The position numbers and the translations under genes were made by a program. A stretch of DNA of 59,846 nt, counting the filler. It is 4 parts of 4 records of this genome, joined end to end, with 100 filler letters (N's around TTAATTAATTAA, not from the genome) between each part and the next. Parts side by side here need not be neighbours in the genome. Positions count along the whole stretch, not along the records: positions 16,603 to 42,420 come from SRR31147125_14462; 3 more parts are not named here. The stretch is one strand, 5' to 3'. The notes below the pieces were generated by a model that worked only from the letters and a program-made list of their open reading frames with translations, searched no databases and was not told the DNA's origin. Numbering within the stretch: position 1 is the first letter of the stretch; each line of letters starts with the position of its first letter. Shown piece after piece: positions 14,668-42,886 of this stretch.

Positions 14668-16455
14668 CTAATTATTGCTTTGATACCATTCGTTTACTTC
14701 TTGGCTTATCTCTTCACCGCCAATTGCATTGATATCTTCTACAAAAGTGTCAAACGCTGATATATCATCTTCACCCATAATAATTCTTGTGAATGCCTCA
14801 TTAATCATCTTTTGCTGGGTACCCATAAATTCGCTCATTGTCTCAGTTACCGAGTATGAATAGGCATCCTGCAAGACAGTGGTATCAAAGTTTTTCCAAT
14901 AATATGTCAGTATATGTTCTGAACCTTCAGGATAAAGACAATATACCATGGGTAAGCATCAGCCGTATTTTCTTCAATATAAGGTGTTACCAGATTATAT
15001 ATCATGTTTTCGGTTTCATTGGCATAAATTTCTTTTAACACCTCTTGATCTTCTTCAGGGAAGAATTCTTCAATAGATTCGTCTCTCGCTTCAACGATGT
15101 CACTTCCTTCAATCATTTTCTTTGTCTGCAAAGCCATAAACAGGTTTGACATAGGCAAATGAGGATATTTTACAGGAATCACAAAGTTATGACCGTCAGT
15201 TACATAATAATCCTTTGTTTCTGCATCTGACATCAAAGCATCATATTCGTTGGCAAGGTTCATTATTTTCACAACCGCCTCGGGATGTTCACAATCTTTA
15301 CTTATAACAACACCTTGAATAGAAGTTGAAGTTGAAGGAACATCTACTTTCCCCACCAGGTATGGGAACTGCCACCCAATCAGCGTTGGGGTCATTTGCC
15401 TTTGACGCACCAAAACCAAATAAGAGAGGAGTTGCGTGTACACCATAAATCATACCAATTTTTCCGTTAGCAACGTCTTCAGAAATCTGCTCAGTCCCTT
15501 TAATACAAAACTCTGTATCAATATAGCCTTTTGAATACATATCTTGAAGTTTTAAGAGTGAATCCTTAACTTTATCTGTACCCATGCCGCTAACAAGTTC
15601 TCCATCAATTTCCTCCCATATTAGGGGATGTGCATCATTGGTATTAAAATATCCGATTAAAGAGGAAAGTGTCGAACTCATTAGGTTATCCCCTCCGAGA
15701 ATACCAATTCCTAATGTATCATCTTCGCCGTTTTGATCCGGATCATCTTCTGCAAATGCTTTTATTACTGCATCTAATTCCTCTGCTGTTTCAGGAATTT
15801 CTAGGTCTAAGTTATTAAGCCAGTCACGCCTTATCCAAAGCATTTTAGCCTCATCGAGAATATCTCCTTCACCAACATTCGGTATAGCAGTTTCTTCGCC
15901 ATCACCAAAGTCAAATGCTGTCCAGTTTAAGTATCTGTTTACATTGTGAAAAGCTTTGTTTACATCCGAAGCCCATGTGTCAAAAAGGTTGCGGACTGGT
16001 ATAATAAGTTCCGCATCATGCAGCTGTTTTACTGTAGTTGCGTTTATTTGTGAAATAAAATCGGGGATTTGCCCAGAAGCCATCATAATGTTTAATTTCT
16101 CAAGGTACTGAGATGAATCAACTATAGCAATATACTCGATTTCAATATTAAGCTTTTCCTTAATCAATCTAGTCCATCTGTTATCCTCAATTGTTTCTCC
16201 ATCAAGACCTGCAATCATTTCATCTATTGCCGAGTTTGATGCAAATATAGTAGTCAGTTTTACTGTTTCTTCGTACCTTCCATATGGGTCTACTGTTACT
16301 TCTTCAGTGGCTGTCGACTCATCTGTCCCTTGTTCTTGTGTTTGCTCTGTTTCATCAGAATCAGTCAATTCTGTATTTGTACATGAGCTTAGCGCTAAAA
16401 CACTCAAAATAAGCATTAACGCAACAATTATAGAGAATATTCTTCTCAATTTCAT
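14668..16455 (-). CDS. Extracellular solute-binding lipoprotein (LplA-like), frameshifts at ~15352 and ~14934
   Basis: Signal peptide with LSSC lipobox, WIRRDWLNNLDLEIPET, DPDQNGEDDT, CEHPEAVVK, RIIMGE...GGEEISQEVNEWY; three ORF pieces tile one SBP. Confidence 0.88.
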
Positions 16456-17412: not shown

Positions 17413-17447
17413 AAAAAAATACCCTGCACTTAACAGGATGCAGGGTA
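17413..17447 (-). terminator. Rho-independent terminator after the receiver gene
   Basis: TACCCTGCA-loop-TGCAGGGTA followed by T7 on the minus strand. Confidence 0.75.
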
Positions 17448-17493: not shown

Positions 17494-17976
17494 TCATACA
17501 AATGCCTTTACGATTTCGTTTTGAATAGATTGGAGTTCTGAATAGGCAGAGTTGATTTGAGAAATTTTTTCGTTTAATTTTTTCATTAGTTTTTTTCTTT
17601 CCAGGCCATTTCTGAGAATAATTAAGAGATCGTCATTATCCCATGGTTTTTCAATATACTGGAAAAGGCCGACGTCGTTGATGGCTTTAATGGCATTTTC
17701 CTTATCCGCATAACCCGTGAGGATGATGCGTGGCACTTCTGGCCTGACATCCCGAACCCTGGCCAGGAAGCTGATTCCATCCATTTCCGGCATTAAATAA
17801 TCTGAAATGACCAGATCAACATCATTTCCTGAGATGAAATCCAACGCTTTCTCAGCAGATGTAAAAGTGTGAACATTGTAATGAGTTTCCAAACTAAGAA
17901 AAGAATTCAAACTTGTAAGTACAATATCTTCATCGTCGACAATGACTACTGTTTCTTTTTCAGAAGATGTATCCAT
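17494..17976 (-). CDS. Receiver-domain response regulator with short C-terminal coiled coil
   Basis: VIVDDE, ISDYLMP, ILTGY, IEKPWD; ATG at 17976 behind GGAG. Confidence 0.92.
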   Translation of the reverse strand: MDTSSEKETVVIVDDEDIVLTSLNSFLSLETHYNVHTFTSAEKALDFISGNDVDLVISDYLMPEMDGISFLARVRDVRPEVPRIILTGYADKENAIKAINDVGLFQYIEKPWDNDDLLIILRNGLERKKLMKKLNEKISQINSAYSELQSIQNEIVKAFV

Positions 17977-18313
17977 CTCTCTCTCCTGCAATATTGAATA
18001 AGGTCTATTGATGTAAATGTGATCTTGACGCAATTAAAATAACAATATTATTAATAAACCTCAATAGATAAATATAATATTTATATGATGGGTGCCTTTT
18101 TAAAAAAGATCATTAGTTTTACGAAAAATATATCCCCTGGTTTCATTACGTTTCTTTATTAAAGACCGGATTACAGCAAAAAGTATCTGGCCCTGGTTTT
18201 TATTGTAGACCAACAGATAAGGGCATTCTATTATTCAATATAGTTTTATAAATTTAGGGAATTTGTGGAATATCCCATTGAGTTGGAGGTTGAAGAGAAA
18301 AAGAAAAAAGCGG

Positions 18314-18757
18314 TTAAACGTTTTGCTTGAGATCAACTCTTACACGTCCTACCAGATTACGCAATCGTTTTGACATTGTTTTTAATACACCCTGGGTTAT
18401 CCGGGTGTGATCTGCAAGTAGATCGTAAAAATCTTCCCGGTCAATTTGCAGTAAAGTAGATTCTTCCATGGTTGTTGCTGTTGTTATTCGTGGTTCATCA
18501 TCAAAGAGAGCCCAGGTACCAAAAGCATCTTTCGCCTTTGCAATCATGACCTGTTGATCGTGATGGTGCAAGCGGACTTGCCCTTCAATGACAATATACA
18601 TTGAATCCGATACCTGGCCTTCATCATAAATTTGCGTGTCTGCTTTAATTTTTATTTCATCTGTCACTGCAGCAATATGTGCCAAATCTTCTGTCGTGTT
18701 GTTTTCAAATATATCTACTTCTTGTAAAAACAATACTTTTTCCACTATAGTTAACAT
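18314..18757 (-). CDS. Stand-alone cyclic-nucleotide-binding domain protein
   Basis: VEKVLFLQEVDIF, IYDEGQVSDSMYIVIEGQV, FGTWALFDDEPR; no HTH. Confidence 0.9.
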   Translation of the reverse strand: MLTIVEKVLFLQEVDIFENNTTEDLAHIAAVTDEIKIKADTQIYDEGQVSDSMYIVIEGQVRLHHHDQQVMIAKAKDAFGTWALFDDEPRITTATTMEESTLLQIDREDFYDLLADHTRITQGVLKTMSKRLRNLVGRVRVDLKQNV

Positions 18758-18781
18758 ATTAATGGCCCCGTTTTTTTCGCT

Positions 18782-21594
18782 CTATGAAATTGATTTTAAG
18801 CGTTTTAATGCATAATTTGCAGTTTCTCTGGTTGCCCGATCCGGCTCTGTCATTAGTTTTTTTATCATCCATTTGGGTTCTGAAATTCCGGCTTCTGCCA
18901 TAAAATATACAGTACATATTTTAAGCCATTTGTCGTCTTCCTCTAAAATTATCTGTATGGTTTCTGCCACTGAATTTGCCGATTTATTGGAATATGTTAG
19001 TGATTTCTCCAATTGAGCAGAAGAGCTTCTTTCAATGAGTGGGATGATCATTTTTTTTAAGGATGGATCTAACAGATTATCCAAAAACTCGATGGCATTT
19101 GCACGTTGGTCCATGTTTTTACTTGTTACAGCCTGATAGGCATTAATTATGTCGTTTGGTGGATATTTTAACTCTAATAACCTGAAAATTCGTTCGAGAG
19201 TGTTTTCGAGTTTTTCTTCCAACGTTTTCACAATTAATTGGTGAGCTTTAAGAGCGTTGTTGTTCGTATCCTGGATCACATCCAACAAACTGTCTTTTGT
19301 GTATAGCAGGGATAGCGTTTTGAAATAGTTATCAGCCTCTTTGATGATTCTTTTTCCAATTTTTTGATTTTCAAACTTGAGCAAAGGAAAGTTTGTTCTC
19401 AATTTATTGAGGGACTTTATCATTTCATAACGCAACATCAGGTCTTTATGGTCAAGATTTTTAAAAAGCAGGTCTACAGAATACTGGGTTCCAATTAAGG
19501 CGAGAACCTTGGAAATTCCCAGCCGGATGCGTGTATCTACATCCGAATTGGTTATATAATCCTCAAGAGTGTCGATAATATCATCGCCATACTCTGCCAG
19601 GGCATTTCGAGCTTCCCTTTTAACGAAATTTGTATTCAAATGTCTTATTAAAACAGGAATGAACATTGGATCGCGACTATTGCCTGCATTTGTAATTGCA
19701 GCGAGAACTACCTCAGGGGATTCATCATTTAACAGATTTTGTAAAAATGGATAGAGTTCCTTTTCTCCTGCAATTCCAATAACATTGGCGAGATTAATCT
19801 TAAGCAAGGTTTTATCCACCTCACTATCATTATAATCAGCCCATTGTTCGACAAAAGAATCAAATATGTCTTTAAAATGAATAGATTTACGAACATCGCT
19901 TCTTTCACGATTTGCGTGCGCCGCGCATAAAAGTGCGGCGCTTTTAATTCTATAATCTTTATGAGAGAGATAATGATGTAATACGTCAATACTGTCATTG
20001 CTTGTCTGGGCCAGATACCTAATAGCCTCAACTTTAACATCATAGTTATCATCATCTATTAATTCGGTAGCTTCCCGGGTAAAATCAGCATCATAGTTGA
20101 GTAAATTGCCCAAGATTTGTATTTTTATATCTGGCGAAGAATGTGGTAGCAATTCTCTGAAATATGGAAGGAAATTTTCATTTTTTACATTCTCAATTAA
20201 CTTGAGTACATAGAGAATTTGTCGTTCATTTCTGCTGTTAAAAATCTTGACCAAACTTTCAAATACTGAAGCATCTTCGAGATTGACATTTTGATCCTGG
20301 AGGTCAATAGAACGTTTCTCAATAGCCTGGCGAAATGAGTTTATATATTCCTGCCTCGTCGTAGTAATCAAATAATACCAGATGGCAATAATAAATATGA
20401 TGACAAAACTGATATTTTGAACGGAAAAGTGGAACTGGGTTGTAAAAATAATTAACAGAAAGCCGCCAATGCCGGTTGCAAGGCTATCTATAAACACATC
20501 GATAAAAGTTTTACTCTGGTTTTTGATGTTGCCGGGAAGCGGCAAGTATAATAACTCAAGCCCTGCCTTGTTTATGGATTGTTTAAACCCTCCATCACTC
20601 ACCTTTATAATAATAGCTGATAAAAGACCTGGATTGAAGAGAATGCAAAAAGCGCCTATAAGAATACCTGTTGGCAGGAAAAACAGGGAGGTGGTGACAC
20701 CAAAGTATTTTAAAACCCGGCTGGTTAGGAGCAGCTGAATCAACAAGGAGGCGATGCTAAAATTCGAAGACCAGAATCCAAAAAAGGCAGTGAGTTGGTC
20801 TTCATCTTTGATCAGGTCACTGGCGATGGCACTATATTGATAATCTACCAAATTTGCAATGATGACACTTATACCTACGAGAGCAGCGATTAACGTTAAA
20901 TAACGTGATTTGAGGATTAGTTTCAGAGGGCTATCTTCTGAATATTGTTTTCGAACTCTTTTTCTTGTAATAATTTTTCTGTATAAGTAAATCGCGCGCT
21001 TTTTTTCCATATGATTCCCATAATAAAGATACAAAGGGTGAGAAAACTCATACAAAGAAATATCAAATTTTCCGTACCAAAGACGGGAGCAAGGAAATTT
21101 GTTGTAAAACCACCAAAGATACCACCAGAAATTCCTCCCGCACCAATAAAGCCAAATAATCTTTTTGCTTCACGGGCGTTGAATACATAATTGGCAAATA
21201 ACCAGAATTGAGATGTTGAAATAACCCCAAATATGGCAACCCATATGTAAAAAGCATAGTAAAACCAGCCTGAATCAAAACCTATAAAAAGTAAAATCCA
21301 AAATACAAAGAAAACACTAATGGAAATAAGAGTCGTGTAGAGGATCAACAGATTTAGCCGGATTTTATTCGCATATTTTGAGTGAATATGGATTATGAAA
21401 ATCGCTGAAACTGCAACAAGTATAAAGGCATAGGGAAGTTGGGAAATACCGAACTTTGTCAGAAATAGAGAGTTGCGTACCGGTTTTACTATAAGAAGAG
21501 ATGCGATGATTAAAAAGATATAGCTAAACATCAGCGTGGCTTTTAAACCCTCACCTTCACGAATATCAAATATTTTGCGAATAAAGTTTTGCAT
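18782..21594 (-). CDS. NTT/TLC-family nucleotide transporter fused to HEAT repeats, frameshift at ~20960
   Basis: KPVRNSLFL, SQFWLFANYVFNAREAKRLFGFIG, DYQYS, SINKAGLELLYLPLP, KTFIDVF; then helical HEAT repeats and RANAIEFLDN. Confidence 0.88.
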
Positions 21595-21656
21595 TAATAT
21601 ATGCTATAATTCTTCCCGATAATAGTTTACATATCAAAGATAAAAATGTTTAGGTC

Positions 21657-21885
21657 TTATTTTGCTTCTGACTGAGGAGATGTCAATTTTTTATGTTCAA
21701 TTCCGATAACAACAGCCAGACCTATCCAAACAAGAACCAGTAAAAGATTAAAAAGAGCAAATTGTTTTGTTTGAAAAGCCAGGATATGTGTACCAATATA
21801 AACCATTAATGCAGACAGGACATCTCCGGTTCTGACAAAGAATGTATCAATAGCTTGCTTGGCTTTTTGTTCTCGCGTGGTTGCA
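21657..21885 (-). pseudogene. C-terminal remnant (last two TM helices) of another NTT-family carrier
   Basis: TTREQKAKQAIDTFFVRTGDVLSA aligns by eye with PTSKDEKYKAKAFIDMFVQRFAKVLA of the neighbour; upstream sequence is non-homologous. Confidence 0.8.
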
Positions 21886-22136
21886 AATACAGTTCTTGTT
21901 TTATCAGAGTCTGTAATAAATAATCTGTTATGTTTTCGATTCATGCATTATAATGGAAGTCGTTAATCCACAAACGCCTCATATAAAAATTATTATGAAA
22001 CGAATTGTATACTCGAAATTGTTGAACTCGAGCTATTCTGTCCCACACGATGAGTGTAATCTCTTGAAATTAAGCATTTTTTGGTTTTAATATATTAATG
22101 GCGTTTAAAATATCCATTTCGTGCTAAATAAGTACA

Positions 22137-23450
22137 TCAAGTTGTCATATTTTGAAATTTTTTACCAGCATATCGGGCAGCATAAATCCATACAGAAACA
22201 ATCGCGATTGTAATAAGAGAAAGCCATCTTTTGCTGGAGAAATCTGAAAAATAGCTTGTAATTCCAAGGCTCACACCAATAGCCAGTACCTTTGCAAATC
22301 GTTGTACAAACATATCTATGAATGCCTTTGCTTTGTATTTTTCATCCTTACTTGTCGGCACATATAAAGCTTCCTTTGCCGATTGGTTAATTCCATAGCT
22401 GAATCCACTGTCAACTGTATTTAAAAGACTCCCCGCCCATAATATTGGCACAGCTAAAAATCCTGCTGAACCGAGAACAATTGCGATAGGAAGAACCAAC
22501 AAAGCTGTTTTAATCCCCAATCGGGTCATTATAAAACTTGTGAGAAAAATCTGCACGAACATAGAGGTGATATTGCTAATCGCGTAAACAGTTGCAAACT
22601 GTTTGCCAATATCGGGTCCATCTAAGAAATAGGATACTGTTGCTTTAAACTGAAAATCCAAAATTTGTGATGTTATTTCATATAGCCCAACAATGGCAAC
22701 AATGGAAAGTAAATATCGTGATTTAAAAACTAATTTTGCGCCCTCAAGCGCAGGATTTCCTTTTTGTTCAGAAGCTATTTCTTCTTTCGGTTTAATTTGC
22801 TCTGGTGGTGGATTTTGTTCCACGATCTTACCCGCAGCCACAGCGATAATAAAAATTGCCATTCCAATGAAGAAACATATCCATAACCAGGCTGAATTGG
22901 TAAAGTAAGTGATCATTCCACGGAAGAAAGTAGCACCAATTGCTCCACCCATAACACCACCCAAAACGATTAATCCATACAAACGCTTTGCCCCATCCGG
23001 CGTGACACTGTCATTCAGGAAAGCAAAAAAAGTAGCGACCATGAGGGTAGTGAAGAGATCTCCAAACAAATAAAAAGTCCAAATAGTGAGATCATTAGGA
23101 TTGTTGATAACAAAAGTATACACCACATAGCAAACCATAAAGAATCCGGTAAAAATAAAAGTCAGCTGCTGGCGGCGAAATTTTCTCACAAGCAAAGTAA
23201 ACACAACTACCCCGATAAAGGCGACAAACATATTCAGCACCTTTGCAAGGAGCTCAGCTTGTGCGGCATCCATATGCCATGAAAATAGATTAAATCCGAT
23301 TTGATCATAATATTCGATGAAAAGTTTCGATTTTAAGGGTTTTAGTACCCAAAAGCTTGTGATAACGAGAAAGAAATACCCAAACATCAACAACGAGAGT
23401 GGTAACTCCTCTCGTTTGATATTCATGATTGCTTTTAATGGATTTGCCAT
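22137..23450 (-). CDS. NTT/TLC-family (ATP/ADP translocase-like) carrier, intact
   Basis: About 12 TM; LKPLK, FFAFLND, AKRLYGLI, DFQFK, NQSAKEALYVP, KYKAKAFIDMFVQRFAK. Confidence 0.9.
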   Translation of the reverse strand: MANPLKAIMNIKREELPLSLLMFGYFFLVITSFWVLKPLKSKLFIEYYDQIGFNLFSWHMDAAQAELLAKVLNMFVAFIGVVVFTLLVRKFRRQQLTFIFTGFFMVCYVVYTFVINNPNDLTIWTFYLFGDLFTTLMVATFFAFLNDSVTPDGAKRLYGLIVLGGVMGGAIGATFFRGMITYFTNSAWLWICFFIGMAIFIIAVAAGKIVEQNPPPEQIKPKEEIASEQKGNPALEGAKLVFKSRYLLSIVAIVGLYEITSQILDFQFKATVSYFLDGPDIGKQFATVYAISNITSMFVQIFLTSFIMTRLGIKTALLVLPIAIVLGSAGFLAVPILWAGSLLNTVDSGFSYGINQSAKEALYVPTSKDEKYKAKAFIDMFVQRFAKVLAIGVSLGITSYFSDFSSKRWLSLITIAIVSVWIYAARYAGKKFQNMTT

Positions 23451-23609
23451 AACGTTTTCCAGTTATAATTTGATTTTTAAGACGAAAGCGAAAAAGGTCG
23501 CTTTTAAGAGTCTAGGATTTTAGATGCCTTGTGCAGAGCCCAAAATTGAGTAATTTTTATTAAATTAAAAATGTCAACATAAAATAAAAAATGTTACCGA
23601 ACGGAACCT

Positions 23610-23720
23610 TTATAGTTGCCAGAAAATAAGAGCCAGAAATCCAGTGAAAAAGATTGTAATGATACTATAAAACTGACGTCGTGGAAACCGACTTGTCAGG
23701 TAACTGTACAAGGGTACGGC
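23610..23720 (-). pseudogene. N-terminal (TM2-TM3) remnant of an NTT-family carrier, not in the ORF track
   Basis: Minus strand translates AVPLYSYLTSRFPRRQFYSIITIFFTGFLALIFWQL*, resembling VVFTLLVRKFRRQQLTFIFTGFF of the intact NTT. Confidence 0.6.
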
Positions 23721-23978
23721 TTCTATTCTCCTCAAAGGTGCTATTGTGTTTACTTTGTCACTAAAATAATAATTTAATAGGATTTTGCAATGGTTAATAT
23801 TGTTTTTTTTAATGGTTGCATCTATTATGATAATATTGTATTGAGCACCACGTCTTCAAGTGGCTTTTAATGATCTTTTAAAAGTCTATTTTTCATTATT
23901 CGTATACAACTGATGAAAAAGAAAGGGTTACGAGTCTTTCCAATTTAAAATCAGGAAATCCCAAAGATTCCTTATTCG

Positions 23979-25190
23979 CTATGGGATTTTAGGTATTTTA
24001 ATTTCATAGACCAGGTTGGTCTTCTTGCTTTCCTGATCTGGAATATTTATAATATCAACAAGTATCTCTTCTTTCTTTACATTCACTTGACAGTAATGGT
24101 ATATTTTTTCCCGACGAAGGTGCCTGACGTCTAAATTTTCTTTTCGGAAATTTTCAGTATACTGTGCGATGGTGCTCTCATCCACAAGATCTCTTACCGG
24201 TACACCTCCTCCACCACTAATAATAATGTGAATCTCTGATTGTTGATCCCTGTTTTGTAAAATATTATGTTCATAATAATGTTCATGTCCTGAAAAAACA
24301 AGCTGAATATTATATTTAAAAAAGAGCTCGATCAGAGCTTTTCGTTTTTGTAATAAATTTTTACCATAGCTTGTATTAAGCCAATCGCTATGATGTTTTC
24401 CAAATGAGACAATGGGATGATGCATGATCAGGATTTTAAATGGTTGATTGTGGGATCCAAGCTCTTTTTCCAGCCATGAGTCCTCGCTGCCTGTAAACCA
24501 TTTTTCAAAAAGCTTATCCTGTTCCGAATCATCAATGTCCTGGTATTGGTCAATGATTATATCAGAATCCACAACAAAAATAGACACATCAGGGAAATCT
24601 AATACATAAAACGGGGGATAGTCAAAGATTGCCTGAAAATTAGGTGATCCATAATTCGGATCATTGGCATGCTCATGATTGCCTATGACAGGAAGATAGG
24701 GTGATTTTAACACCAATGGCTTTTCGTGCTTATTAATCTTTAAAAATGAAGCCCAATGAGACGGATAACGTCCGTCTGTTGGCATATCTCCTATGTTCAT
24801 CAAAAAATCAATTTTGTCCTGCATGACTTTATAATAAAGAGCATCCCGAACACGTCTCTGCTCTTTAAAACCATAGTCCGGTACGGATCTTAAATAATTA
24901 ACTGCCCCAACAAGACCATTGCCCAAAAGATAAACCTGATAAAAAGGAAAGATCACCATTTTCCAGTTGAGCCAATTGTTTTTTCTTAAAAACGTTTCCT
25001 GCAGACGGTAACCGGTTCTGTTATCTCCATAGATAATGAAATTGGGATTGCTTTTAAATGGCTCATCAGCACGTAATGTGGGGATTTTATAAAAGTCCGG
25101 GGCATAATGATCGGGGATGTAACCATGTCGCGCGCAATTGATTGTGATCGTAATAAAAAGAATGGTCTGAATAGCTAAAAGTTTCTTCAA
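23979..25190 (-). CDS. Calcineurin-like / purple-acid-phosphatase-type metallophosphoesterase, probable lipoprotein
   Basis: YGDNR, NIGDM, VIGNHE, MHHP, SGHEHYYE metal motifs; signal MKKLLAIQTILFITITINC. Confidence 0.9.
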   Translation of the reverse strand: MKKLLAIQTILFITITINCARHGYIPDHYAPDFYKIPTLRADEPFKSNPNFIIYGDNRTGYRLQETFLRKNNWLNWKMVIFPFYQVYLLGNGLVGAVNYLRSVPDYGFKEQRRVRDALYYKVMQDKIDFLMNIGDMPTDGRYPSHWASFLKINKHEKPLVLKSPYLPVIGNHEHANDPNYGSPNFQAIFDYPPFYVLDFPDVSIFVVDSDIIIDQYQDIDDSEQDKLFEKWFTGSEDSWLEKELGSHNQPFKILIMHHPIVSFGKHHSDWLNTSYGKNLLQKRKALIELFFKYNIQLVFSGHEHYYEHNILQNRDQQSEIHIIISGGGGVPVRDLVDESTIAQYTENFRKENLDVRHLRREKIYHYCQVNVKKEEILVDIINIPDQESKKTNLVYEIKIPKIP

Positions 25191-25317
25191 TCTATTGTAT
25201 GCCTCAACATTACTTTATATTCTTTAGTGGTGAAGATAAAATGGATGTGAGCTTTTATCCATTTCCCTCCAAATTTTAACATGTTAATATCGTCTTTTGT
25301 TACTTATTTTTTTATAA

Positions 25318-27060
25318 CTAATCTTCTCTTTTCAAGCCGATTATTTTAAGACTGGTGTTAAAAGTCTCTGATTGAAGGTAAATTTTTACTGGTTTACTCC
25401 AATTCGTGTTCGTATTTCTTTTCATTTCAAAAGAAAATTCAAGTTGCTTTTGTGATGAAGTGTTTATTGACAATAAATTAGAAAGATCTGATTTGTCTGG
25501 CAGAACGGGGATACACGTTTTGTTTTCGATATTTTTAAAAGGTTGTATGGTTTTATCATCAGGTAAAAGTCTGATTTGGTATCGATACTCAGCATAGTTT
25601 TCTGTCTTTAGACCGGTTTTGACAGCCATATCTTCAAAACAGATTTGTTGCCCGCCCATATGGTTCTGTTGTAATTTAAAATTATCCAGGCAATTGACAT
25701 GAGTGAAAAAGAGGTGGCCAATTTTATCCCGTCTCTCAATGATGGTTTCTAATAGATATGCCTTTGCATCTGCTGAAGAATATTGTCCCTGTTCTACGGC
25801 TGTTTTTAATTGTTCGTCTGTAAAGGACATAACAATTTTGGCAGCCCAGTAACCATCCAGCCAGGTCATATTGTCAAAAGCAGGATTCGGGGCCTGAGGT
25901 TTGTAATCCAATGGATTAAACAACCTGGATTCAAATAATCCTATTGATGGATACTTGACACCATCCTGCTTTTCCCATGGCCTGACATACAAGCCCTGGG
26001 TAAGGACATTGGATGCGATAATGGTCGGATCAAAATCATATTGGTAGCCACGCCATAAATGGTTTGGGCTATGTGATGCACTTCCCAATGTGGCTCCAAA
26101 GTCTATTAAATAATGTTTTACGTAACTTTTGCCATTTTCTGTGATATACATATCCAATGTGTTATTGTCTTTTGTGTCAAAATGATTTAACCAGGCGGCA
26201 ATAATTCGCAACCCTCTTAATTCGCGGCGGTGGTGGTGCGGGATAATGTCATTAAAATCATCCTTGCGGACTCCATCATATTTAAAAGGTCCAATTGGAA
26301 CCCCTGATAAATATTTGCTTGCAAGAGCACGTACAAGACCATTTGGACCAATTTCAACCCTTTTCAGGATGTTTTCTTTGTCCTGTTCAGTCATAAACCG
26401 TTTGCGTCCCTTTTCATCGGTAAATTTGACTTTTTCACCCATTTTTAAAATCCTGGGATCAAAATAGACGATGTAATTTTCCGGGACGTTAAATCCAGCC
26501 GCGTAAAATAATTTTGTAGAGACAACTTCCGCACCGGATGCAAGTTCTGCATAGCCTGGTGGATCAAATTTGATGACATAATGACCCCCTTTAGCATCTT
26601 TAATATTAAAGCCTGGAGTGACGCCCTCTGCTTTGGCACGTGTAATTATCCAGGTGCTGCTTGTGTCCGGCCCGGTTCCTGTATTAGGTCCTTTAGCAAT
26701 ATTTTCAAGAGAGAGTTGTTTTTCGTTACGGTTTGTATACCAGGCAGAATTATCCACGCCATCAAAAGCGTTTACGTTTTTGGCCTGTTTGCGATTTCCA
26801 GAAAGATTACGGAACTGTCTGGATAAATCAAGAGTCTCCCGTAATGGTAATATGACCTGCTTTTGAAAGTATTCTCCATAGACATTAATATCTCGTTCCT
26901 TTGGGGGCGCCACATGGTATCGATCATCCGGAACAGGATCCGGTGCTTTGAATAATTTTGTACTGCTACTGCAGCCCATCACCACAATGAGCAAGGATAA
27001 AAGAAAATAAACTGGAAACATTTTTTTGTTTATATCATTATTGTTTTGTGTCATCATCAT
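25318..27060 (-). CDS. Exported lipoprotein with a HipA/PI3-4K-like atypical kinase fold
   Basis: Lipobox VMG-C; KAEGVTPGF, YVIKFD, AEVVSTKLFYAAGFNVP, WLNHFDTKDNN, YLIDFG in kinase order. Confidence 0.7.
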   Translation of the reverse strand: MMMTQNNNDINKKMFPVYFLLSLLIVVMGCSSSTKLFKAPDPVPDDRYHVAPPKERDINVYGEYFQKQVILPLRETLDLSRQFRNLSGNRKQAKNVNAFDGVDNSAWYTNRNEKQLSLENIAKGPNTGTGPDTSSTWIITRAKAEGVTPGFNIKDAKGGHYVIKFDPPGYAELASGAEVVSTKLFYAAGFNVPENYIVYFDPRILKMGEKVKFTDEKGRKRFMTEQDKENILKRVEIGPNGLVRALASKYLSGVPIGPFKYDGVRKDDFNDIIPHHHRRELRGLRIIAAWLNHFDTKDNNTLDMYITENGKSYVKHYLIDFGATLGSASHSPNHLWRGYQYDFDPTIIASNVLTQGLYVRPWEKQDGVKYPSIGLFESRLFNPLDYKPQAPNPAFDNMTWLDGYWAAKIVMSFTDEQLKTAVEQGQYSSADAKAYLLETIIERRDKIGHLFFTHVNCLDNFKLQQNHMGGQQICFEDMAVKTGLKTENYAEYRYQIRLLPDDKTIQPFKNIENKTCIPVLPDKSDLSNLLSINTSSQKQLEFSFEMKRNTNTNWSKPVKIYLQSETFNTSLKIIGLKRED

Positions 27061-27094
27061 TTGGCAAACCTATCACAATAATAAAGAGAATCTA

Positions 27095-28411
27095 TTAATT
27101 TAAAGAAAGGTACAGACGATACCCATCTTTGCTTTTACCAAGTTGTATGCTGGCTATAAGACCACGGCTATTCCAGATACGGACGCCTCCACCAAATGTC
27201 ACCTGAATATCATCTAAAGAATTGAATATATCATGAGAAACTTGTCCGGCATCAACAAACAACATTCCATTAAGCATTCTGGTTAATGGATAGCGGTATT
27301 CCAGCGAGCCGAGTAAATAATCCTGATCCCGGTATCGACCTCTTTTAAATCCCCGGATGGAATTCCATTGCCCCAGTTCACTCAGATAGAAGAAGGGAAC
27401 GTTGTGATCCTTAAAGGGTTCTGTTATCTCTGAAGCAATTCTAAAAACGAGGACACGGTTGTAAAATAAGTTCATATAGCGGCTCACATCTGCAGAGAAT
27501 TTCCAAAACCCGAATTGTGTGTCTCGAACCTGTTGAAAAAAACCGCCACTGATTAAATACTCTCCACCGGAGGTCGGATTGCCAGGGTTATTTTTTGTAT
27601 CATGAGCCAATTGCAGCTGAGTAGAAAATAGTTTGATTTTAGTGCCGAGTCCTGGAAGAGAACCTGGTTGATAATATTTATATATTGCATACTCTATATC
27701 ATCTTTGCCATCAAAAATATTATTAATATCGTAATCCATCAATACATTTAGATCTGTCTTGTCACTAAAACGGTATCCAAAAGAAGCGTGTATATTTCCT
27801 TTTTCGTGTGAATATTCGGTTCTGCCAGATTTTTCGGTGTTTGGTCCAATACCAAAGAAAGCTTCAGCTGATAAAAGTTGATAGCCAACCCGAAAATCGG
27901 ATTGTACAGAGTTGTTAAATAAACGAACACGTTGGAATTTTAATTCATAACGTTGTCGTTGATGTGCCCCCATGGTTGTTGTTAAGGAGAGTTTGGATTC
28001 CGGATTTAAAAGTCCTCGTTGCACCAATTGTACTCCAGCTCCGGTACGGGATTCATAAGTTGGTAATAAACTCCTGCGTCCATCATCAGAATTCAGGTAA
28101 TCATAAACACGAGCGGTAATTTTGGTTTCGTTCGTAAAGATAATAATATTTTTTGTTGTTTCGGTGATCAGCATAATGGGTAGATAGACGAGATCTCCCG
28201 GAAAGGAAACCATTTTTTCAAAAGCTGATTTACTTTTGTAATTTTTTCGTAGCTCTTTGGCGGTTTCTTGATCTCTTTTTTCATTTTTTTCATCCTGGGC
28301 ATGTATTTGTTGAAATGAATCCAATGAGAAAATGATTATAAAAAGGAATACCCACAGGGCCATGACATTGTTGGGTAATATTTTAACAAAATAGTGCACA
28401 TTTACCTCCAA
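27095..28411 (-). CDS. Omp85 (BamA/TamA superfamily) beta-barrel without evident POTRA domains
   Basis: Signal peptide, amphipathic strands, HDTKNNPGNPTSG, FYLSELG..SIRGFKRGRYRD loop-6 motif, LEYRYPL, LFVDAGQV, FGGGVR. Confidence 0.82.
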   Translation of the reverse strand: MEVNVHYFVKILPNNVMALWVFLFIIIFSLDSFQQIHAQDEKNEKRDQETAKELRKNYKSKSAFEKMVSFPGDLVYLPIMLITETTKNIIIFTNETKITARVYDYLNSDDGRRSLLPTYESRTGAGVQLVQRGLLNPESKLSLTTTMGAHQRQRYELKFQRVRLFNNSVQSDFRVGYQLLSAEAFFGIGPNTEKSGRTEYSHEKGNIHASFGYRFSDKTDLNVLMDYDINNIFDGKDDIEYAIYKYYQPGSLPGLGTKIKLFSTQLQLAHDTKNNPGNPTSGGEYLISGGFFQQVRDTQFGFWKFSADVSRYMNLFYNRVLVFRIASEITEPFKDHNVPFFYLSELGQWNSIRGFKRGRYRDQDYLLGSLEYRYPLTRMLNGMLFVDAGQVSHDIFNSLDDIQVTFGGGVRIWNSRGLIASIQLGKSKDGYRLYLSLN

Positions 28412-28564: not shown

Positions 28565-31500
28565 TTAAACAGGATTTTGTCTAATCGGCAAAATAATGGT
28601 GAGAGTTGTTCCTTTACCAACGATACTTTTGGCTTTTATTTCACCATTATGTTTTTTAATAATGTTAAAACTAATTGAAAGGCCAAGCCCTGTTCCGACG
28701 CCAACACCTTTGGTTGTAAAACCAGGATCAAATATTTTATTGAGATGTTCCTGTGGTATTCCGATTCCAGTGTCAGAGATGTCAATATATACATTATCAT
28801 CATCAGATGTGGTTGTAATTTCTAACTCACCTTTTTCTTTAATTGCATGTGCGGCATTAACAAAGATATTCAGAAATACCTGATTTAACTGGTTTGGGTA
28901 ACAGTTAATCTGAGGTATATCACCATACTTTTTAATGACATTTACTTTATTTTTCAACTCGTGGTGGACGAGGGTTAGCGTCGTGTCTAAACCCTCATGA
29001 ATGTCCGCTTTTTGAAATTCTGCTTCATCCAGGCGTGCAAATCGTCGTAATTTTCTGACAATATTGGTTACTCGTTCTGTCCCGGATTTTATCACCTCGT
29101 TTGCATCATCAATTATTTTAAGGGTTTGAAGTATATCTTGAGGATTTTTTTTGTCTCTGTTTTCGGTAGGCTTGATTTTAATTTAAATATGGCTCGCATA
29201 AGTGTATTGTGCATGCTATATACGGCCCCCAGGGGCGTATTGATCTCATGCGCCACACCCGCTACAAGATTACCCAGGGCAGCCATTTTTTCAGATTGAA
29301 CCAGCTGTGCTTGCGTTTCACGTAGTTCCTTATTCGTTGTCTCCAGATTCTGCAGAACATTTTTCATGTCAGTTATATCGTGCGCCACACCGATTCTTTC
29401 AATGATTTTTTTATTGTCATCCCTGATGTTCGTTGAATGGGTAATGATCCATCGCCATCCACCATCTTTTTGTTTTAGCCTGAATTCGCGTCCATGCAAA
29501 AAGCCTACATAGCGACTAGGGTCTGATTGTGGTGAGGCGAGCGTTTCAGCCTTGTCATCCGGATGTAACAATGGTTCAAAGGATTTTCCGAGAAATTCCT
29601 GTACATTATAACCCGTGTATTCATAAAATTGCGGTGATAAATAGGAAAATGTTCCATCCGGTTTCATGGAATAAATGATATCATGGGCGTTTTCCACCAG
29701 AGAACGAAATCGTTGTTCACTAAAACGTAATGCCTTGTCTGACTTTATTTTAGCAATATATCCACCCAGCATTTCTGCTGCTGTTTTTAACAGCTGAATA
29801 TCCTGGTCGCCCCATTCACGTTTAATTTTAATATCATCAAAACCAATAAATCCATACCATTTACTGTCAACCCACAAAGGAAGAATGAGCACGGATAATA
29901 TTCCCTCTGACTCTAAATAGACTCTCTCATTTTTAGGAAAATTTGAGGTTGGTCCTGATATGGCTTTTCCCTGAGAGAGATTTTTTGCCCAACGTTGATA
30001 CCCTTTCTTATAGGGTATATAGTGTGATTCATGAGATTTAATTTTAGACGTAAGATGTTGATCACACACTTCATAAGCCAGACGAGTACAGAGTCCTTCG
30101 GTCTGATCTTCAAAGTTTTCAAAAATGTAAACCCGACCTACAGTTGCCGCTTTTTTTAATTCCCTCAGGGCGGCCGGTATGGTTGTGTTGAAATCAACTC
30201 CCGTGAGTAAAGCTTGAATGCAATTTGCCAAACCCTCTTCATAGCGTAGCCGCGTCGCCAGTTTTTGCTCAGCTTCTATACGGTCTTTAATTTCTTCCCT
30301 CAAGGTATCATTTACCTGGACAATTTCAGCTGTTCGCTCCTGAACCCGGATTTCCAATTCATCGTGTGCTTTCTGGAGTGTTTCACGTGCCTGTTTTTGT
30401 TCTGTGATATCACGAACGATTGTCATGACCTCATTTTCACCACTCACGACGATACGAGCTTCAAAGTCGTGTATCTGTCCTTTATGAGGGAGTTGATACT
30501 CCAGAACCTGGGTTTCGTTTGTGGCAAGGGCTTTATTTATTGCTGTTTTCGCTTTTCGTGCAATATTGGGAGGTAATGTCTCATTAATATGTTTTCCAAT
30601 AACAGTTTCTTTTGGAACTTCCAAAGTACTCCACTTCGGAGCCTGATAATCCAGATAGATACCTTTTTTATTTATACGAAACATGAGATCCGGAATAGCG
30701 TTTAAAAGAGCTCTGTTTTTCGCTTCACTTTCCCTTAAGGCAATTTCTATCTGTTGTCGTTCAGCTATTTCATCCCTTAATGATTCGTTTAACGTGGCCA
30801 GTTCTGCTGTGCGTTCCTGAACCCGGATTTCCAATTCGTCGTGAGCTCGACGTAAGGCTTCTTCCGCTTTTTTGCGTTCTTCGATATCTCGTGCTATCCC
30901 AACATAGCACTGTAATAGTCCCTTGTCATTATATAATGAAAAAACAGAGAGATCGATATGTTTTTCTTCGTTTCCTTTATTATAGGCAATAGCCTCACCC
31001 CGATAACTGTCTCCTGTAGCGAGGGCTTTTTCAATTTCCTGACCAAAGACAGAATCCATAAATTGAGAAATAGGCTTCCCGATCATTTCTTTATCTGAAT
31101 AACCCGAAAATTCTCTGTGAGCTGGATTACGGTCCTTGAGCTGTCCCTTGTTGTCTAATATGAGTATGCCATCCTTGGAATTAAGAAAAACTTCCCTATA
31201 GAGGCGAAGTTTTTCTTCCGCCTCTTTGCGTTCTGTAATATCAATTCCTGTTGCAATAATATATTCAACCTGCCCGTTCTCATTAAACAGGGTCGAATTG
31301 GACCATGTTATTAAACGTCGGCTTCCATCATAGGCTGTCCAGTAATTTTCCGCCGTTCCCGGTGTCCGCCCAGCTTTTAATTTTGAAAAAACGCCTTTAA
31401 CAAATTCTATCTCTTCTGGTACTATAAATAAATCCCAAACCTTTTTACCTTTTACTTCATCAAATGTTTTACCTGTTATTTTTTCACAGGCTCTGTTATA

Positions 31501-33876
31501 GCGAACAAAACGGCCTTTCGGATCAAGCACGACGACAAGAGCCCCGGCTGTATCCAATATTGCCGAAACAAAATTACGTTCCCTTTTTAATTCTTCCTCT
31601 GCTTTGCGTCTTTCATTAATATCATAAAGTGCACCGATGAGAACAGGTTCGCTATTAATTTCTGTTTTAACTATGGACATAATCATCCAGAAAATGCGAC
31701 CATCTGCTTTTTTTATTCTTACTTCGTGATTATAAAGAAAACCATGTTCCTGAACTTGTTTGACGACATATTGTCGGTCATTAGAATCCGCATAAAAGTC
31801 CGGAGTGTATTGGCCAATAAGTTCATGTGATTCCAGGCCAAGAAGTGAAGCCAGGGGTTCATTCGCAAAAAGTATATGCCCATCCGAGATCCGACTGATG
31901 ACAAAGGGAATAGGGGACACTCTGACAATGGCTCGAAGTTGTTCATCCGCTTCCTTCATCTTTGTAATATCCACAAATGTCCAGACTCTGCCCAGAGTCA
32001 CCTTGTTTTTCGTATCCTGTACCGGTGTTGTGAAAATTGACAAATATCGTGGTGTCGGCTTTAGCAGTAGGCAGGAACGTTTGTAAATTTCCTCCTGAAA
32101 AATTCTTTGAGCTTTCTACGTCCGGTTTATCGGTTAACTCTTGAATGATTTTTTCAAAGTGATCATTTTTTTGAAAAGAGTTGGTGATTTTGGATAAAAA
32201 TGTTTGGAAAGGTTGATTAAGGAGCTCTTCACTGGTTAAACCGAAAAAATTAGCGGTCTCTTTATTTACAGCTGTTATTTTTCCTGACGGATTCACCATG
32301 ACAATCACACTGTATGATGAATCCAATATTGCCTGTAATTCATCCTTGCTCTGGGATATTTCGTAAAGTAATCTTTGCATTTCTGCGTTTTTCTTTTCCA
32401 ACTGTTCCTGTATGGAGAGCAAAGCCACATTGGCATTGGCCATTTGGTAATTGGCATGTTCAAGTTCTTTTGCCTTTTCATTCAAGCTATCATTGGCGAA
32501 CTGAAGTGAATGTGTTCTTTCAGCTACTATTTTTCCCAGGTTTTGGTAGGAACGGATATTATCGAGAGCAAGCCCAACCATATTGGCGAACATTTCCACC
32601 CGGGCGACATCCTGTGCATCCATTTCTCTTTCATGGTACTGCATGTCACCCTCTATAAATCCAATGGTTTTCCCTTTGACAGTTATGGGTGCGGCTACAA
32701 GGGATTTTATAGGTATTGTTTGTGTGAGTTCTTTGGGAAAATGTGGATCTTTGTCGATATCCTGAATAAATATGGTTTTGTTTTTCTCAATGCATTCCAA
32801 AAGGTGTACAGGAAGTTGGATCGTTTTTTTGTTTAAAAGGCTGAGATACTCCTCAATGACCTTAGGTGAATCTTTTTCAAAATGGAATGAGCGTAAGCTG
32901 AAAAATTCGTCCGTTTTTAAGATCAGAGCAGCTCTGTCAAAATCAAGGCTTGATGTTAATAATGAGGGAACTTCATCAAAGAGAGTTTCTTCATCAAAAA
33001 TTCGTGAAAATCTGTTTGCCGCTCCATTCAAAGCCGCTAATTGCCGGTTGGCGTTTGCTAGACGTTTGGTTCGCTCTTCTACTCGTTTTTCAAGCAATTG
33101 GGAATACTTTTGTTTCTCTATTTCACTTTTTTTTCTTTCAGTAATGTCCAGTGCAATTCCAATATTGCGGACAATTTTACCATTTTCAAAATACAGGCGT
33201 CTTCTGATTTCAAAGTCTTTTATCTCACCGGATTTACAGATCATACGAAATTCAATACTTTTCGATTGACTTTCACCCGTTTTTATTGCGTGGGCAAGTC
33301 CTGCTTTTATTCTGTCTCTATCATCAGGATGGATAATGTCAAAAACCGAACGGCCGAGAAGCTCGAGCTGAGTATACCCCAGAATGCTTTCAACTCCCAG
33401 GCTCAGGCTTGTAAATTTACCATCCGGGCTTAGAGAATAAAGAATGTCCGGCATGGTTTCCATGATCATTCTTAATGTATCTTCAGAGCTTTTCAGTTTT
33501 TTTAATAGTTGAACATTCTCGACCGCATGTCGGATCGTAATATCTATTTCATTGATTTCAAGTGGCTTGAGAACAAAATGATCGGCTCCTTTTTTTATAG
33601 CATCCACTGCGAGTGGAATGGAACCGTGAGCTGTCAGGAGAATAACCGGGACTAGTGGACTTGTTTTTCTGACATGATTAAGAATTTCTAAACCATCCAT
33701 GTCAGGCAAGTTTAAATCACAAAGAAGAATGTCAACATCATTTTGCGCAAACAGGCTTAATCCTTCCTCGCCCGATTGCGCTGCCAGTACCTTATAATTT
33801 TTTTCTGTAAAAGTTTACTGAATTCCTGGCGTTGCCGGATGTCATCTTCTATATAAAGGATTTTTGTTCTTTCCAT
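28565..33876 (-). CDS. Giant hybrid sensor kinase REC-PAS-GAF-PASn-GAF-PAS-HisKA-HATPase (~1770 aa), frameshifts at ~33801, ~32100, ~29148
   Basis: ATG 33876 MERTKILYIEDD; LCDLNLPDMDG; several PAS/[54 protein letters not shown]; the pieces join at A/T runs. Confidence 0.85.
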
Positions 33877-42330: not shown

Positions 42331-42420
42331 ATTATTAATTTACGAAAGAGTCGACCCTGGTGTGTAAAGTTTTTTTATCTTTAATTATATGCGTAGTGTT
42401 TCCGTATAAATTTTAACAAG

Positions 42421-42520
42421 NNNNNNNNNNNNNNNNNNNNNNNNNNNNNNNNNNNNNNNNNNNNTTAATTAATTAANNNNNNNNNNNNNNNNNNNNNNNN
42501 NNNNNNNNNNNNNNNNNNNN
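42421..42520. other. Artificial contig linker
   Basis: N-run / TTAATTAATTAA / N-run. Confidence 0.98.
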
Positions 42521-42521
42521 T

Positions 42522-42824
42522 TTTGCAAAAGGTGAAGTTGATGCAATCTTAGCAAAAGATGATGTAATTAAATCAGTAAAAACTGATTATGCTATACCTG
42601 GATCAGATGAAGTGTTTAAATTCCAAATCCATTTAGATCAGGCAAAAGAGTATGAAGCAGGCTATGAAAAATTCCCAGAAGATAATAAAGTAGTAGTTGA
42701 TGGAAAAGAGCATGACCTGGAAGGTGTTAGAAGACAGCTTACTTGGATGTTTGGAAGACCAATTCCACAACAGAAAACAGAAGAAACACCAGTAGAAGAA
42801 GCAAGTGATCAACAAGTAAATTAG
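42522..42824 (+). CDS. 3' end of a hypothetical protein truncated by the contig start
   Basis: Frame open from the contig edge (FAKGEVDAIL...) to TAG, followed by a terminator. Confidence 0.65.
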   Translation, partial: FAKGEVDAILAKDDVIKSVKTDYAIPGSDEVFKFQIHLDQAKEYEAGYEKFPEDNKVVVDGKEHDLEGVRRQLTWMFGRPIPQQKTEETPVEEASDQQVN

Positions 42825-42829
42825 TATAT

Positions 42830-42864: not shown

Positions 42865-42886
42865 ATTGAATTCAATTATTATTATT

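Follow-up and report, generated by a model that had tools for sequence, protein, structure and literature searches.

Envelope biology proceeds, to our knowledge, from the standard premise that the periplasm holds no ATP, and outer-membrane assembly, lipoprotein sorting and envelope signalling have been explained around this premise. We know of no CtkA, HipA/HipT or CotH kinase that comes with an Omp85 or NTT partner. The noNterm class of Omp85 proteins was reportedly described by Heinz and Lithgow in 2014. In Leptospira, according to passages of one report, noNterm Omp85 genes are followed by a lipoprotein gene whose product has DUF1566 or Big domains, and lipoprotein flipping has been proposed (PMC11358297). 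For the NTT carriers, passages of another paper describe NTT-HEAT proteins with an adjacent or fused cyclic nucleotide-binding domain (cNBD), encoded in an operon without an assigned role (Major, Embley and Williams 2017, PMC5381601). Here we analyse a window of 59,846 nucleotides, the whole stretch of DNA under study, which joins four parts of one genome and in which positions 16,603 to 42,420 come from SRR31147125_14462. Its minus strand carries a gene cluster that brings together an exported kinase-like lipoprotein (hereafter KIN), an Omp85-family barrel, a metallophosphoesterase lipoprotein (MPE), NTT-family carriers, a protein with a cyclic nucleoside monophosphate (cNMP)-binding fold and a response regulator.

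All parts fall within known superfamilies (kinase-like, Omp85, NTT, metallophosphoesterase), and we regard the system as new because the conserved combination, and the idea attached to its inferred function, have no described bacterial counterpart. An earlier reading made from the sequence alone (the sequence-only reading) had listed six genes between 18314 and 28411 and had stated that it knew of no characterised system with this composition. All six open reading frames (ORFs) were found, co-oriented on the minus strand, and we found no description of the KIN family or of the cluster in the published literature, where the supplements of PMC5381601 might list neighbours. The cluster is confirmed as real and strongly conserved, beyond chance, because the same gene order recurs in dozens of unrelated contigs.

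An exported protein family with a predicted kinase fold

KIN (25318–27060, minus strand; 580 amino acids, aa) eludes annotation by sequence. It matches no Pfam family at E ≤ 0.01, HipA, CotH and other kinase models included, and no NCBIfam model at E ≤ 0.1, and its kinase domain matched no PDB chain by sequence or profile. The family is nevertheless large: there were more than 3443 matches among 8000 scored candidates, and the family forms 2795 clusters at 50% identity. The best 120 homologues, 49–60% identical, bear no functional name and have no Pfam domain. Among the source records, the few with a name are labelled, for instance, KSB1, Zixibacteria, Calditrichia and Latescibacteria, and the Atlas clusters nearest to the homologue P0028 are commonest in Myxococcota and Acidobacteriota. 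With the same homologue as query, bacterial clusters of Fam20C, HipA_2 and CotH appeared at 0.78–0.79, which is lead level only.

The AF2 model of KIN, based on a 68-sequence alignment, has a pLDDT of 93.3 and a pTM of 0.92. Foldseek ranked Fam20C first (E 1.6e-5) and CtkA next, with a probability of 1.00 for both. A VIA-align comparison that covered 48,161 chains placed CtkA at Z 13.8 over KIN residues ~120–455 (225 residues aligned, rmsd 4.0), followed by DrFam20C (13.3), Hydra Fam20 (13.1), PI4KIIalpha (12.7), CotH (12.2), HipA (11.4), actin-fragmin kinase (11.1), MavQ (10.8) and HipT (10.7). The best structural matches are atypical kinases only, and unrelated rows reach Z 8 at most. The C-terminal tail (residues ~455–570) resembles an FN3/Ig-like sandwich at Z 7–8. 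As modelled, KIN has the two-lobed protein-kinase-like (PKL) fold, and it is a new family within this superfamily. The catalytic set is preserved in the alignment at K164 (65/68), E178 (58/68, with Asp in seven more), D295 (66/68), N300 (64/68) and D320 (64/68), which were assigned to the beta3 Lys, the alphaC Glu, the catalytic-loop Asp and Asn and the DFG Asp by motif order, spacing and the secondary structure of the model rather than by superposition. A further group of invariant residues, D271, H275, R279, R282, G326, D402, W405 and R443, is specific to the family.

Among the 68 relatives, every N-terminus listed begins with a hydrophobic stretch that looks like a signal peptide by eye. 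The lipobox column holds a Cys in 42 of the 68, the window protein reading ...VVMGC, and the other starts end in a manner resembling signal peptidase I sites; the lipoprotein calls for both KIN and MPE are pattern readings made without a dedicated predictor. We read KIN as an exported protein with a modelled kinase fold and an intact catalytic set, features from which we infer kinase activity. The sequence-only reading had proposed an exported kinase on the strength of motifs, and the N-termini of the relatives and the resemblance of the model to CtkA, Fam20C, PI4KIIalpha, CotH and HipA bear it out on both export and fold.

The family also has divergent forms. Paralogues 31–36% identical to the window protein are referred to here as KIN2. 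A long form of about 1160 aa (P0373–P0380), whose sole source-named member is from Acidobacteriota, carries a C-terminal extension of ~600 aa that has no Pfam match; a second kinase copy in this form was considered and rejected, as BLAST gave no second match.

A nearly invariant pair with an Omp85 barrel

Neighbourhoods were collected in several ways (surveyed loci carry the prefix L). A first batch of 21 genome loci consisted of L001 and 20 loci taken from the 76 matches listed (good E-values, long contigs, one per genome), their naive ORFs being labelled by phmmer with the window proteins as queries; a second batch of 20 targeted loci was left out of the rates. A metagenome scan with a 13-sequence KIN alignment yielded 452 relatives, the best 80 of which were kept. 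Finally, all ORFs of at least 120 aa from 121 loci were clustered without regard to the window. In this clustering KIN was present in 114 loci, the barrel in 99, NTT or NTT-HEAT in 63, the cNMP-fold protein in 28, the receiver in 23, a histidine-kinase cluster (named from its scanned members) in 20 and MPE in 19. By their position, another two clusters (78 and 14 loci) resemble antisense ORFs that lie within the genes for KIN and the barrel, and the clustering of the 121 loci brought up no recurrent candidate for a substrate protein.

The closest companion of KIN is the barrel, whose gene lies directly upstream in 20 of the 21 genome loci and in 57 of the 60 metagenome loci with at least 900 bp of upstream sequence; one of the three misses among the latter (L152) is an ORF-overlap artefact. 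In the single exception among the genome loci (L040), the possibility of a hidden barrel was rejected (hhalign probability 1.3% or less). The notion that KIN2 loci lack a barrel was also rejected, since the slot of the barrel is taken there by 451–475-aa genes for divergent members of the same Omp85 subfamily, matched in hhalign at 97.7 and 97.8% over 365–373 columns.

In the window, the barrel gene (27095–28411, minus strand) encodes a protein that scores 77.5 bits against PF01103 (cut-off 24), and 68 of 69 relatives match this 16-strand barrel domain. A relative that is 90% identical measures 422 aa, which places the true start probably at 28363. No POTRA family matches any of the 69 relatives at E ≤ 1, yet a conserved N-terminal stretch of ~100 aa is present, and the term POTRA-less, which the sequence-only reading had used, is to be taken as no POTRA detected. 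No DUF5982 match turned up when the 69 barrels were compared with Pfam, nine of the barrels match the ShlB/FhaC family weakly, and the PDB matches of the profile are confined to the barrel portions of BamA, TamA and 9ccg. The barrel might anchor KIN, export it to the surface or present its substrate.

A second Omp85 protein of 535–565 aa, which does bear POTRA domains, has its gene immediately upstream of that for the POTRA-undetectable barrel in two loci (L042:12478-14085 and L044:4599-6296). Its cluster occurs in 5 of the 121 loci, and both of the two members scanned bear POTRA domains.

Single-domain NTT carriers track the kinase-like protein

The second strong tie is to a carrier. The intact single-domain NTT/TLC gene of the window (22137–23450, minus strand; 437 aa) encodes what we call type A, or NTT-A, which matches PF03219 at 63.3 bits, where the two pieces of the NTT-HEAT gene score 27.3 and 44.5 and the Pfam cut-off is 21; it also matches MFS_1. 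It is 64% identical to the proteins of L046 and L042. Judged by sequence, the window NTTs are distant members of the family, because they reach 53.5 and 36.4 bits against the NCBIfam model TIGR00769 (NTP/NDP exchange transporter), well below its cut-off of 387.2. Two solved ADP/ATP carriers are the only PDB matches of the profiles of NTT-A (9j3j, 1.6e-16; 9j3n, 7.5e-15; next matches noise, E > 0.04) and of its paralogue NTT-B (9j3n, 8e-14; 9j3j, 5e-7). The carriers are accordingly taken as NTT-family proteins, and the idea that they are generic MFS proteins was rejected, because the profiles match only these NTTs.

Type B is the carrier that occupies this slot in most related loci. With the NTT-B proteins of L036, L051 and L033 as tblastn queries, its remains were found on both sides of the intact gene and on the same strand: a decayed N-terminal remnant at 23492–23726 (residues ~74–153, over three frames) and a C-terminal remnant at 21657–21944 (residues ~349–438, match at 21666–21914), the C-termini being 55–62% identical. 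The N-terminal remnant is unchanged in a contig of X1, a run assembled independently that is probably from the same sample as the window and hence not independent DNA. Because the type-A gene is flanked by these remnants and type B is usual in the slot, the sequence indicates that type A displaced its type-B paralogue in place. The sequence-only reading was right that the NTT is intact; it had not seen that the gene sits inside the remains of a displaced paralogue. A 95-aa ORF was rejected as a gene, since it is the tail of this NTT-B. Type A fills the same slot in L046, L056 and L064, for which no remnants are reported.

How specific is the carrier? The phylum of the one GTDB relative found comprises 167 genomes, 42 of which have KIN. 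These genomes were searched with NTT-HEAT and NTT-B, single-domain NTTs being defined as open frames of less than 600 aa and the tables being tallied by hand. An NTT-domain match was present in 40 of the 42 KIN-positive genomes and in 15 of the 125 without KIN, among them G163, which is marked unpublished. For single-domain NTTs the split is sharper, with 33 of 42 (21 of type B and 12 of type A) against 1 of 125, the one being a gene that starts at a contig edge (G009). In 26 of the 33 genomes the NTT lies within 5 kb of KIN on the same contig. The single-domain NTT is the KIN-specific partner, because it is found in 33 of 42 KIN-positive and only 1 of 125 KIN-negative genomes. It occurs in 13 of the 21 genome loci of the first batch. 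In the metagenome loci an NTT or NTT-HEAT gene is present in 20 of 25 with at least 10 kb of flank, in 28 of 39 with at least 6 kb and in 34 of 80 overall. The hosts are probably free-living, because their genomes measure 2–8 Mb. Co-occurrence across genomes, which the sequence-only reading had made one of its touchstones, is strong for both the barrel and the single-domain NTT.

A model for phosphotransfer in the envelope

What might such a combination do? The best fit, to which we lean tentatively, is that exported ATP feeds a periplasmic kinase, the whole amounting to an envelope phosphotransfer module. The model starts from the fold, the conserved catalytic residues, the signal-peptide-like N-termini, the gene linkage and the NTT membership described above. 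KIN would be exported by Sec and, with the Omp85 barrel dedicated to it, would act at the outer membrane or in the periplasm. In the inner membrane, the single-domain NTT would swap cytoplasmic ATP for periplasmic ADP and so supply the phosphoryl donor for KIN. NTT exchange is reversible, and on this basis an outward flow would follow by mass action when ADP is made outside, with no loss of adenylate. Extracytoplasmic phosphatases, where present (the purple-acid-phosphatase (PAP)-like lipoprotein here, PAP2 enzymes elsewhere), would remove or recycle phosphate, and a Na/Pi carrier with PhoU would return it in two loci. NTT-HEAT, the cNMP-fold protein, the receiver and the PAS/GAF histidine kinase would form a separate cytoplasmic control module, often beside the cluster. 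The substrate could be protein, lipid or sugar; its class is unreadable from the fold because the nearest folds phosphorylate proteins (CtkA, Fam20C, CotH and HipA), sugars (Fam20B) or lipids (PI4KIIalpha and MavQ).

The findings, which concern gene sets kept by many uncultured bacteria, suggest, and do not prove, that phosphorylation with ATP takes place outside the cytoplasm. A broader proposition, which we regard as rather doubtful, is that bacteria from several phyla maintain periplasmic ATP under regulation, with NTT export driving the KIN–Omp85 pair and the phosphatases serving as erasers. In a bolder variant the flow is reversed: with an external phosphoryl donor, the exported kinase would make ATP, which would then be imported by the NTT.

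Several points weigh against ATP export. Relatives of the NTTs also carry NAD, S-adenosylmethionine (SAM) or other nucleotides, and the carriers seen here are, by their TIGR00769 scores, distant from the characterised ones. ATP would leak out through the outer membrane. With the query used, 9 of the 42 KIN-positive genomes are without a single-domain NTT, two of the nine having KIN next to NTT-HEAT, and 5 of the 25 long metagenome loci have no NTT nearby. Several genomes hold two to four Omp85–KIN pairs and only one of these lies by an NTT; because the extra pairs sit without an NTT, the coupling of KIN to the carrier need not be obligatory. The Na/Pi–PhoU and phosphatase neighbours fit phosphate scavenging equally well. 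The genome counts, moreover, are not phylogenetically independent, the completeness of the 167 genomes is unknown, and near-duplicate loci (L036/L059, L083/L084, L094/L108 and L123/L125) were retained. What speaks for the model over each of the rival explanations considered below is chiefly the near-exclusive tie between the single-domain NTT and KIN, together with the intact catalytic set.

Phosphatases and the case for phosphate or nucleotide acquisition

MPE (23979–25190, minus strand) matches PF00149 at 51.5 bits (cut-off 21.5) and carries GNHE and GHEH motifs in the window protein; among its homologues, GNH[ED] is kept in 9 of 10 and GHxH in 6 of 10. Its best PDB sequence matches, which are weak (E 1.9e-4), are purple acid phosphatases. 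A hydrophobic start followed by a conserved Cys was seen by eye in the window protein and in nine full-length proteins among the ten listed homologues, and the description of MPE as a lipoprotein metallophosphoesterase stands. Its role as a fixed eraser, which the sequence-only reading had assigned to it, does not: MPE is optional, occurring in 4 of the 21 genome loci, in 14 of the 80 metagenome loci and in the 19 loci of the clustering, and PAP2 takes a similar place elsewhere. The PAP2 cluster spans 5 of the 121 loci (two members scanned, both PAP2); one such gene (L033:12063-12983) adjoins the barrel and another (L053:14366-15466) follows the histidine kinase. In a single protein of 782 aa (P0209), KIN is fused to a PAP2 domain with PSGH and SxxxHxxxD motifs. 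The phosphatase partner thus varies between a PAP-like lipoprotein, PAP2 and none, and phosphatases of two unrelated folds, exported or membrane-bound, recur with KIN, though only in the smaller share of loci. Given the PAP2 links, a substrate that is linked to lipid or close to the membrane is an attractive option. Between MPE and NTT-B, L036 encodes a Na/Pi cotransporter (PF02690) and PhoU (PF01895); L039 has ORFs nearly identical to these, named by eye, and L077 a weak Na/Pi-like match.

These genes raise the alternative that the cluster serves phosphate or nucleotide acquisition. Phosphatases would release phosphate from organophosphates, Na/Pi or NTT-type carriers would import phosphate, nucleotides or another organophosphate, KIN would bind or process nucleotide in the periplasm, and the barrel would pass nucleotide through the outer membrane. 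The purple-acid-phosphatase-like lipoprotein within the cluster, the PAP2 genes beside the barrel in five loci and the Na/Pi–PhoU insertion are all in keeping with this proposal, as is the fact that the characterised NTTs, in the passages of Major et al. 2017 (PMC5381601) concerned, are importers. The phosphatases, however, are confined to a minority of the 121 loci (19 and 5), and Na/Pi was met in only 1 of the 80 metagenome loci. A binding protein would have no need of fully conserved phosphotransfer residues, of which the catalytic-loop Asp (66/68) is one. Omp85 barrels are not known to serve as nutrient channels, and neither nucleases nor nucleotidases nor TonB-type receptors came up repeatedly in the clustering of the 121 loci. 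We consider acquisition unlikely as the main function.

A possible export pair acting on external targets

The order of barrel and lipoprotein genes, nearly invariant as it is, would also be expected of a two-partner-like export system, in which the Omp85 protein moves KIN to the surface or releases it. KIN would then act on external targets (other cells, matrix or environmental compounds) with external nucleotide, and NTT and NTT-HEAT would be merely co-regulated. CtkA, Fam20C and CotH, which are among the nearest folds, act outside the cytoplasm of the producer, and the weak ShlB/FhaC matches in 9 of the 69 barrels point the same way. In Leptospira, too, noNterm Omp85 genes precede lipoprotein genes, with flipping proposed in the passages concerned (PMC11358297). 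This explanation, however, leaves the distribution of single-domain NTTs (33 of 42 against 1 of 125) and their adjacency to KIN unaccounted for. No POTRA was detected in the barrels, although known TpsB transporters need POTRA domains. PAP2 enzymes reside in the inner membrane and have their active sites in the periplasm, and the P0209 fusion ties KIN to just such an integral-membrane domain. An export pair of this kind therefore seems to us quite improbable as the whole explanation.

A separate, putatively regulatory module

Downstream of the carrier lies the NTT-HEAT gene (18782–21594, minus strand; Pfam TLC, HEAT_2 and HEAT), which in the window is read in two frames: an ORF of 223 aa (20923–21594) and one of 757 aa (18782–21055), both with a TLC domain and the second also with HEAT_2/HEAT. 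The frameshift is at a T5 run (20959–20963, plus strand). Contig sequence of run X1 covers 18304–24200 in one piece at a depth of 34.5 and differs from the window over 18300–24200 at a single site, an extra T after 20958 that turns T5 into T6. When read through with an N at that site, the gene is one frame of 937 aa with no internal stop, and its homologues measure 934–998 aa. The gene was rejected as a pseudogene, since X1 reads T6 and the frame is then open. The frameshift is read as a homopolymer miscall or a minor variant rather than gene decay, because X1 has T6 and the window contains several other split genes. The fusion named in the sequence-only reading is thus upheld once the site is read through, the window itself being frameshifted.

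The gene for the stand-alone cNMP-binding-fold protein (18314–18757, minus strand) begins 24 nt downstream. The protein matches PF00027 at 64.5 bits (cut-off 27.5) and has the cassette FG[T/A]WAL...PR[V/I]xTA in 28 of 28 relatives. The canonical phosphate-binding cassette reads Gly-Glu ... Arg-Ser/Thr-Ala; its Arg is kept here, and its Glu is replaced by Thr or Ala in all 28, so that the label of cNMP sensor goes beyond the evidence. The cNMP gene follows NTT-HEAT in 8 of the 21 genome loci, and in 11 of the 80 metagenome loci; a receiver gene was found in 9 of the 80. The last gene of the co-oriented unit encodes a stand-alone receiver-domain response regulator (17494–18033, minus strand; PF00072, 93.9 bits), and its homologues (E 1e-64 to 1e-80) come after the cNMP gene in L034, L035, L040, L046, L050, L051, L053–L056, L058, L059, L064, L068 and L069. 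A terminator-like hairpin, with a 10-bp stem followed by T7, stands behind it (17420–17447, minus strand; a pattern scan, consensus match only). A promoter scan gave results at chance level, with 44 found and 44.7 expected.

At the other end, upstream of the barrel, is a cytoplasmic sensor histidine kinase (28565–33709, minus strand) with, by Pfam, a partial REC domain, PAS, GAF, four PAS, GAF, PAS, HisKA and HATPase_c. It is split in the window into 31943–33709, 29113–32043 and 28565–29095, splits that may be assembly errors like that of NTT-HEAT. PAS/GAF histidine kinases precede the cluster also in L053, L054, L055 and L069. The limits given in the sequence-only reading consequently need to be widened: its six genes stand, and the unit runs on to the receiver gene and is preceded by the histidine kinase. 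KIN2, too, is found beside (MPE)–NTT-B–NTT-HEAT–cNMP–REC in L053, L054, L055 and L058.

Is this set of genes the gate of ATP export, as had been suggested for HEAT and cNMP? KIN-negative genomes carry NTT-HEAT alone, or with the cNMP and REC genes in L069, and NTT-HEAT is found among the 15 of 125 kinase-negative genomes with an NTT-domain match. NTT-HEAT, cNMP and REC form a module of their own, not a dedicated gate, because they are present without KIN too. In sum, what the sequence-only reading proposed about the export and fold of the kinase and about co-occurrence is retained, and MPE as a fixed part and HEAT/cNMP as a gate are unsupported in the form proposed.

The module has neighbours of its own. 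In L056 a REC-SpoIIE (PP2C) phosphatase is encoded beside the stand-alone receiver (L056:2181-3410; Pfam was run on L056 only), and similar ORFs of 409–412 aa are found in L059 and L068, which hints at an output of the partner-switching type. A Beta-lactamase2-family gene (serine hydrolase fold) lies just upstream of NTT-HEAT at L070:2985-3947, L071:6758-7705 and L072:10607-11539, the genomes concerned being ones in which the query used gave no KIN; it is a different recurrent partner of NTT-HEAT. On the KIN side, a cluster of Hanks-type Ser/Thr kinases occurs in 10 of the 121 loci. The three members scanned (L088:3302-4447, L105:6627-8231 and L133:2766-4532) all match Pkinase, have an N-terminal region of ~220 aa and lie directly downstream of KIN, and some other members are elsewhere in the locus or on the other strand.

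That the cluster is a sensing device for external or periplasmic nucleotides, with KIN as a nucleotide-binding receptor or slow enzyme and NTT-HEAT in the part of a transporter-like receptor, its HEAT arm drawing in the cNMP-fold protein and the receiver, for relay by the histidine kinase (REC-PP2C in some loci), would agree with the joint recurrence of NTT-HEAT, cNMP, REC and PAS/GAF histidine kinase, also without KIN (L069), with the REC-SpoIIE genes and with the Hanks-type kinases right after KIN, but is very unlikely, as a receptor needs no intact catalytic set, the obligatory barrel and the phosphatases are left unexplained, and the single-domain NTT tracks KIN whereas the regulatory module does not.

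Other features of the loci and of the window

A protein of 195–208 aa without a Pfam match is encoded in six loci (for instance L083:11663-12250 and L144:6735-7361), mostly just after KIN, and between KIN and MPE where MPE is present. Elsewhere in the window, further split or truncated genes include a rhamnosidase (1–2461), a zinc alcohol dehydrogenase (11705–12750), a solute-binding protein (14907–16455), a HAMP-HisKA kinase without an ATPase domain (45350–46636) and MTHFR (56653–57132). The window probably carries indel errors, because the one site checked (20958) proved to be a homopolymer difference between assemblies. The stretch from 42000 to 52000 is low in GC (0.26–0.31, against ~0.36–0.40 elsewhere); it holds the HAMP-HisKA kinase with an OmpR-type regulator and then two tandem DUF3857 genes (47560–51423), the first of which also has a transglutaminase-like domain.

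Implications and comparison with known systems

What are the consequences for our picture of the envelope? An exported protein with an intact catalytic set, joined to relatives of ATP/ADP exchangers, makes the premise of an ATP-free periplasm directly testable. If ATP export is true, it would provide a first functional context for the NTTs of multi-megabase genomes, for NTT-HEAT/cNBD proteins and for POTRA-less Omp85 barrels. Even if it fails, the invariant pair of barrel and kinase is a new envelope machine to explain.

Each part of the cluster has relatives from which it departs in a definite manner. The NTTs share membership of the Pfam TLC family with the ATP/ADP translocases of Chlamydiae, Rickettsiae and plastids; unlike these, they are only distantly related to the characterised carriers, belong to hosts with genomes of 2–8 Mb and would, in our proposal, work in the direction of export. 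The NTT-HEAT gene, with its NTT and HEAT parts and the cNMP gene 24 nt downstream, matches the architecture described in PMC5381601, whose passages on this operon mention no Omp85, kinase-like lipoprotein, second single-domain NTT or receiver among the neighbours. With the noNterm Omp85 proteins of Leptospira, as portrayed in the relevant passages of PMC11358297, the barrel has in common that no POTRA domain is recognisable and that a lipoprotein gene follows immediately; the lipoprotein there is not of kinase fold, unlike KIN, and no linkage to an NTT is reported in those passages. CtkA, HipA/HipT and CotH have the same Lys / Asp-x4-Asn / Asp-Phe-Gly logic as KIN, which adds to it a conserved N-terminal segment, invariant residues of its own and an FN3-like tail.

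A further parallel is with Fam20C, the Golgi casein kinase, and the other kinases of the eukaryotic secretory pathway. These are likewise kinase-fold enzymes that reside outside the cytosol, and the Fam20 structures are among the closest to the KIN model (Z 13.1–13.3). ATP is imported into the lumen of the endoplasmic reticulum (ER) and Golgi, and the proposed logic, in which a membrane nucleotide exchanger would supply a kinase outside the cytosol, is the same. The differences are equally plain: KIN, a lipoprotein of bacteria that is paired with an Omp85 barrel, has no sequence similarity to Fam20C, the candidate carrier is an NTT/TLC protein and not of the ER/Golgi carrier type, and the kinase activity of KIN is a prediction. 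Should that prediction and the outward flow of ATP prove true, the cluster would stand as the equivalent, in bacteria, of the secretory-pathway kinases of eukaryotes.

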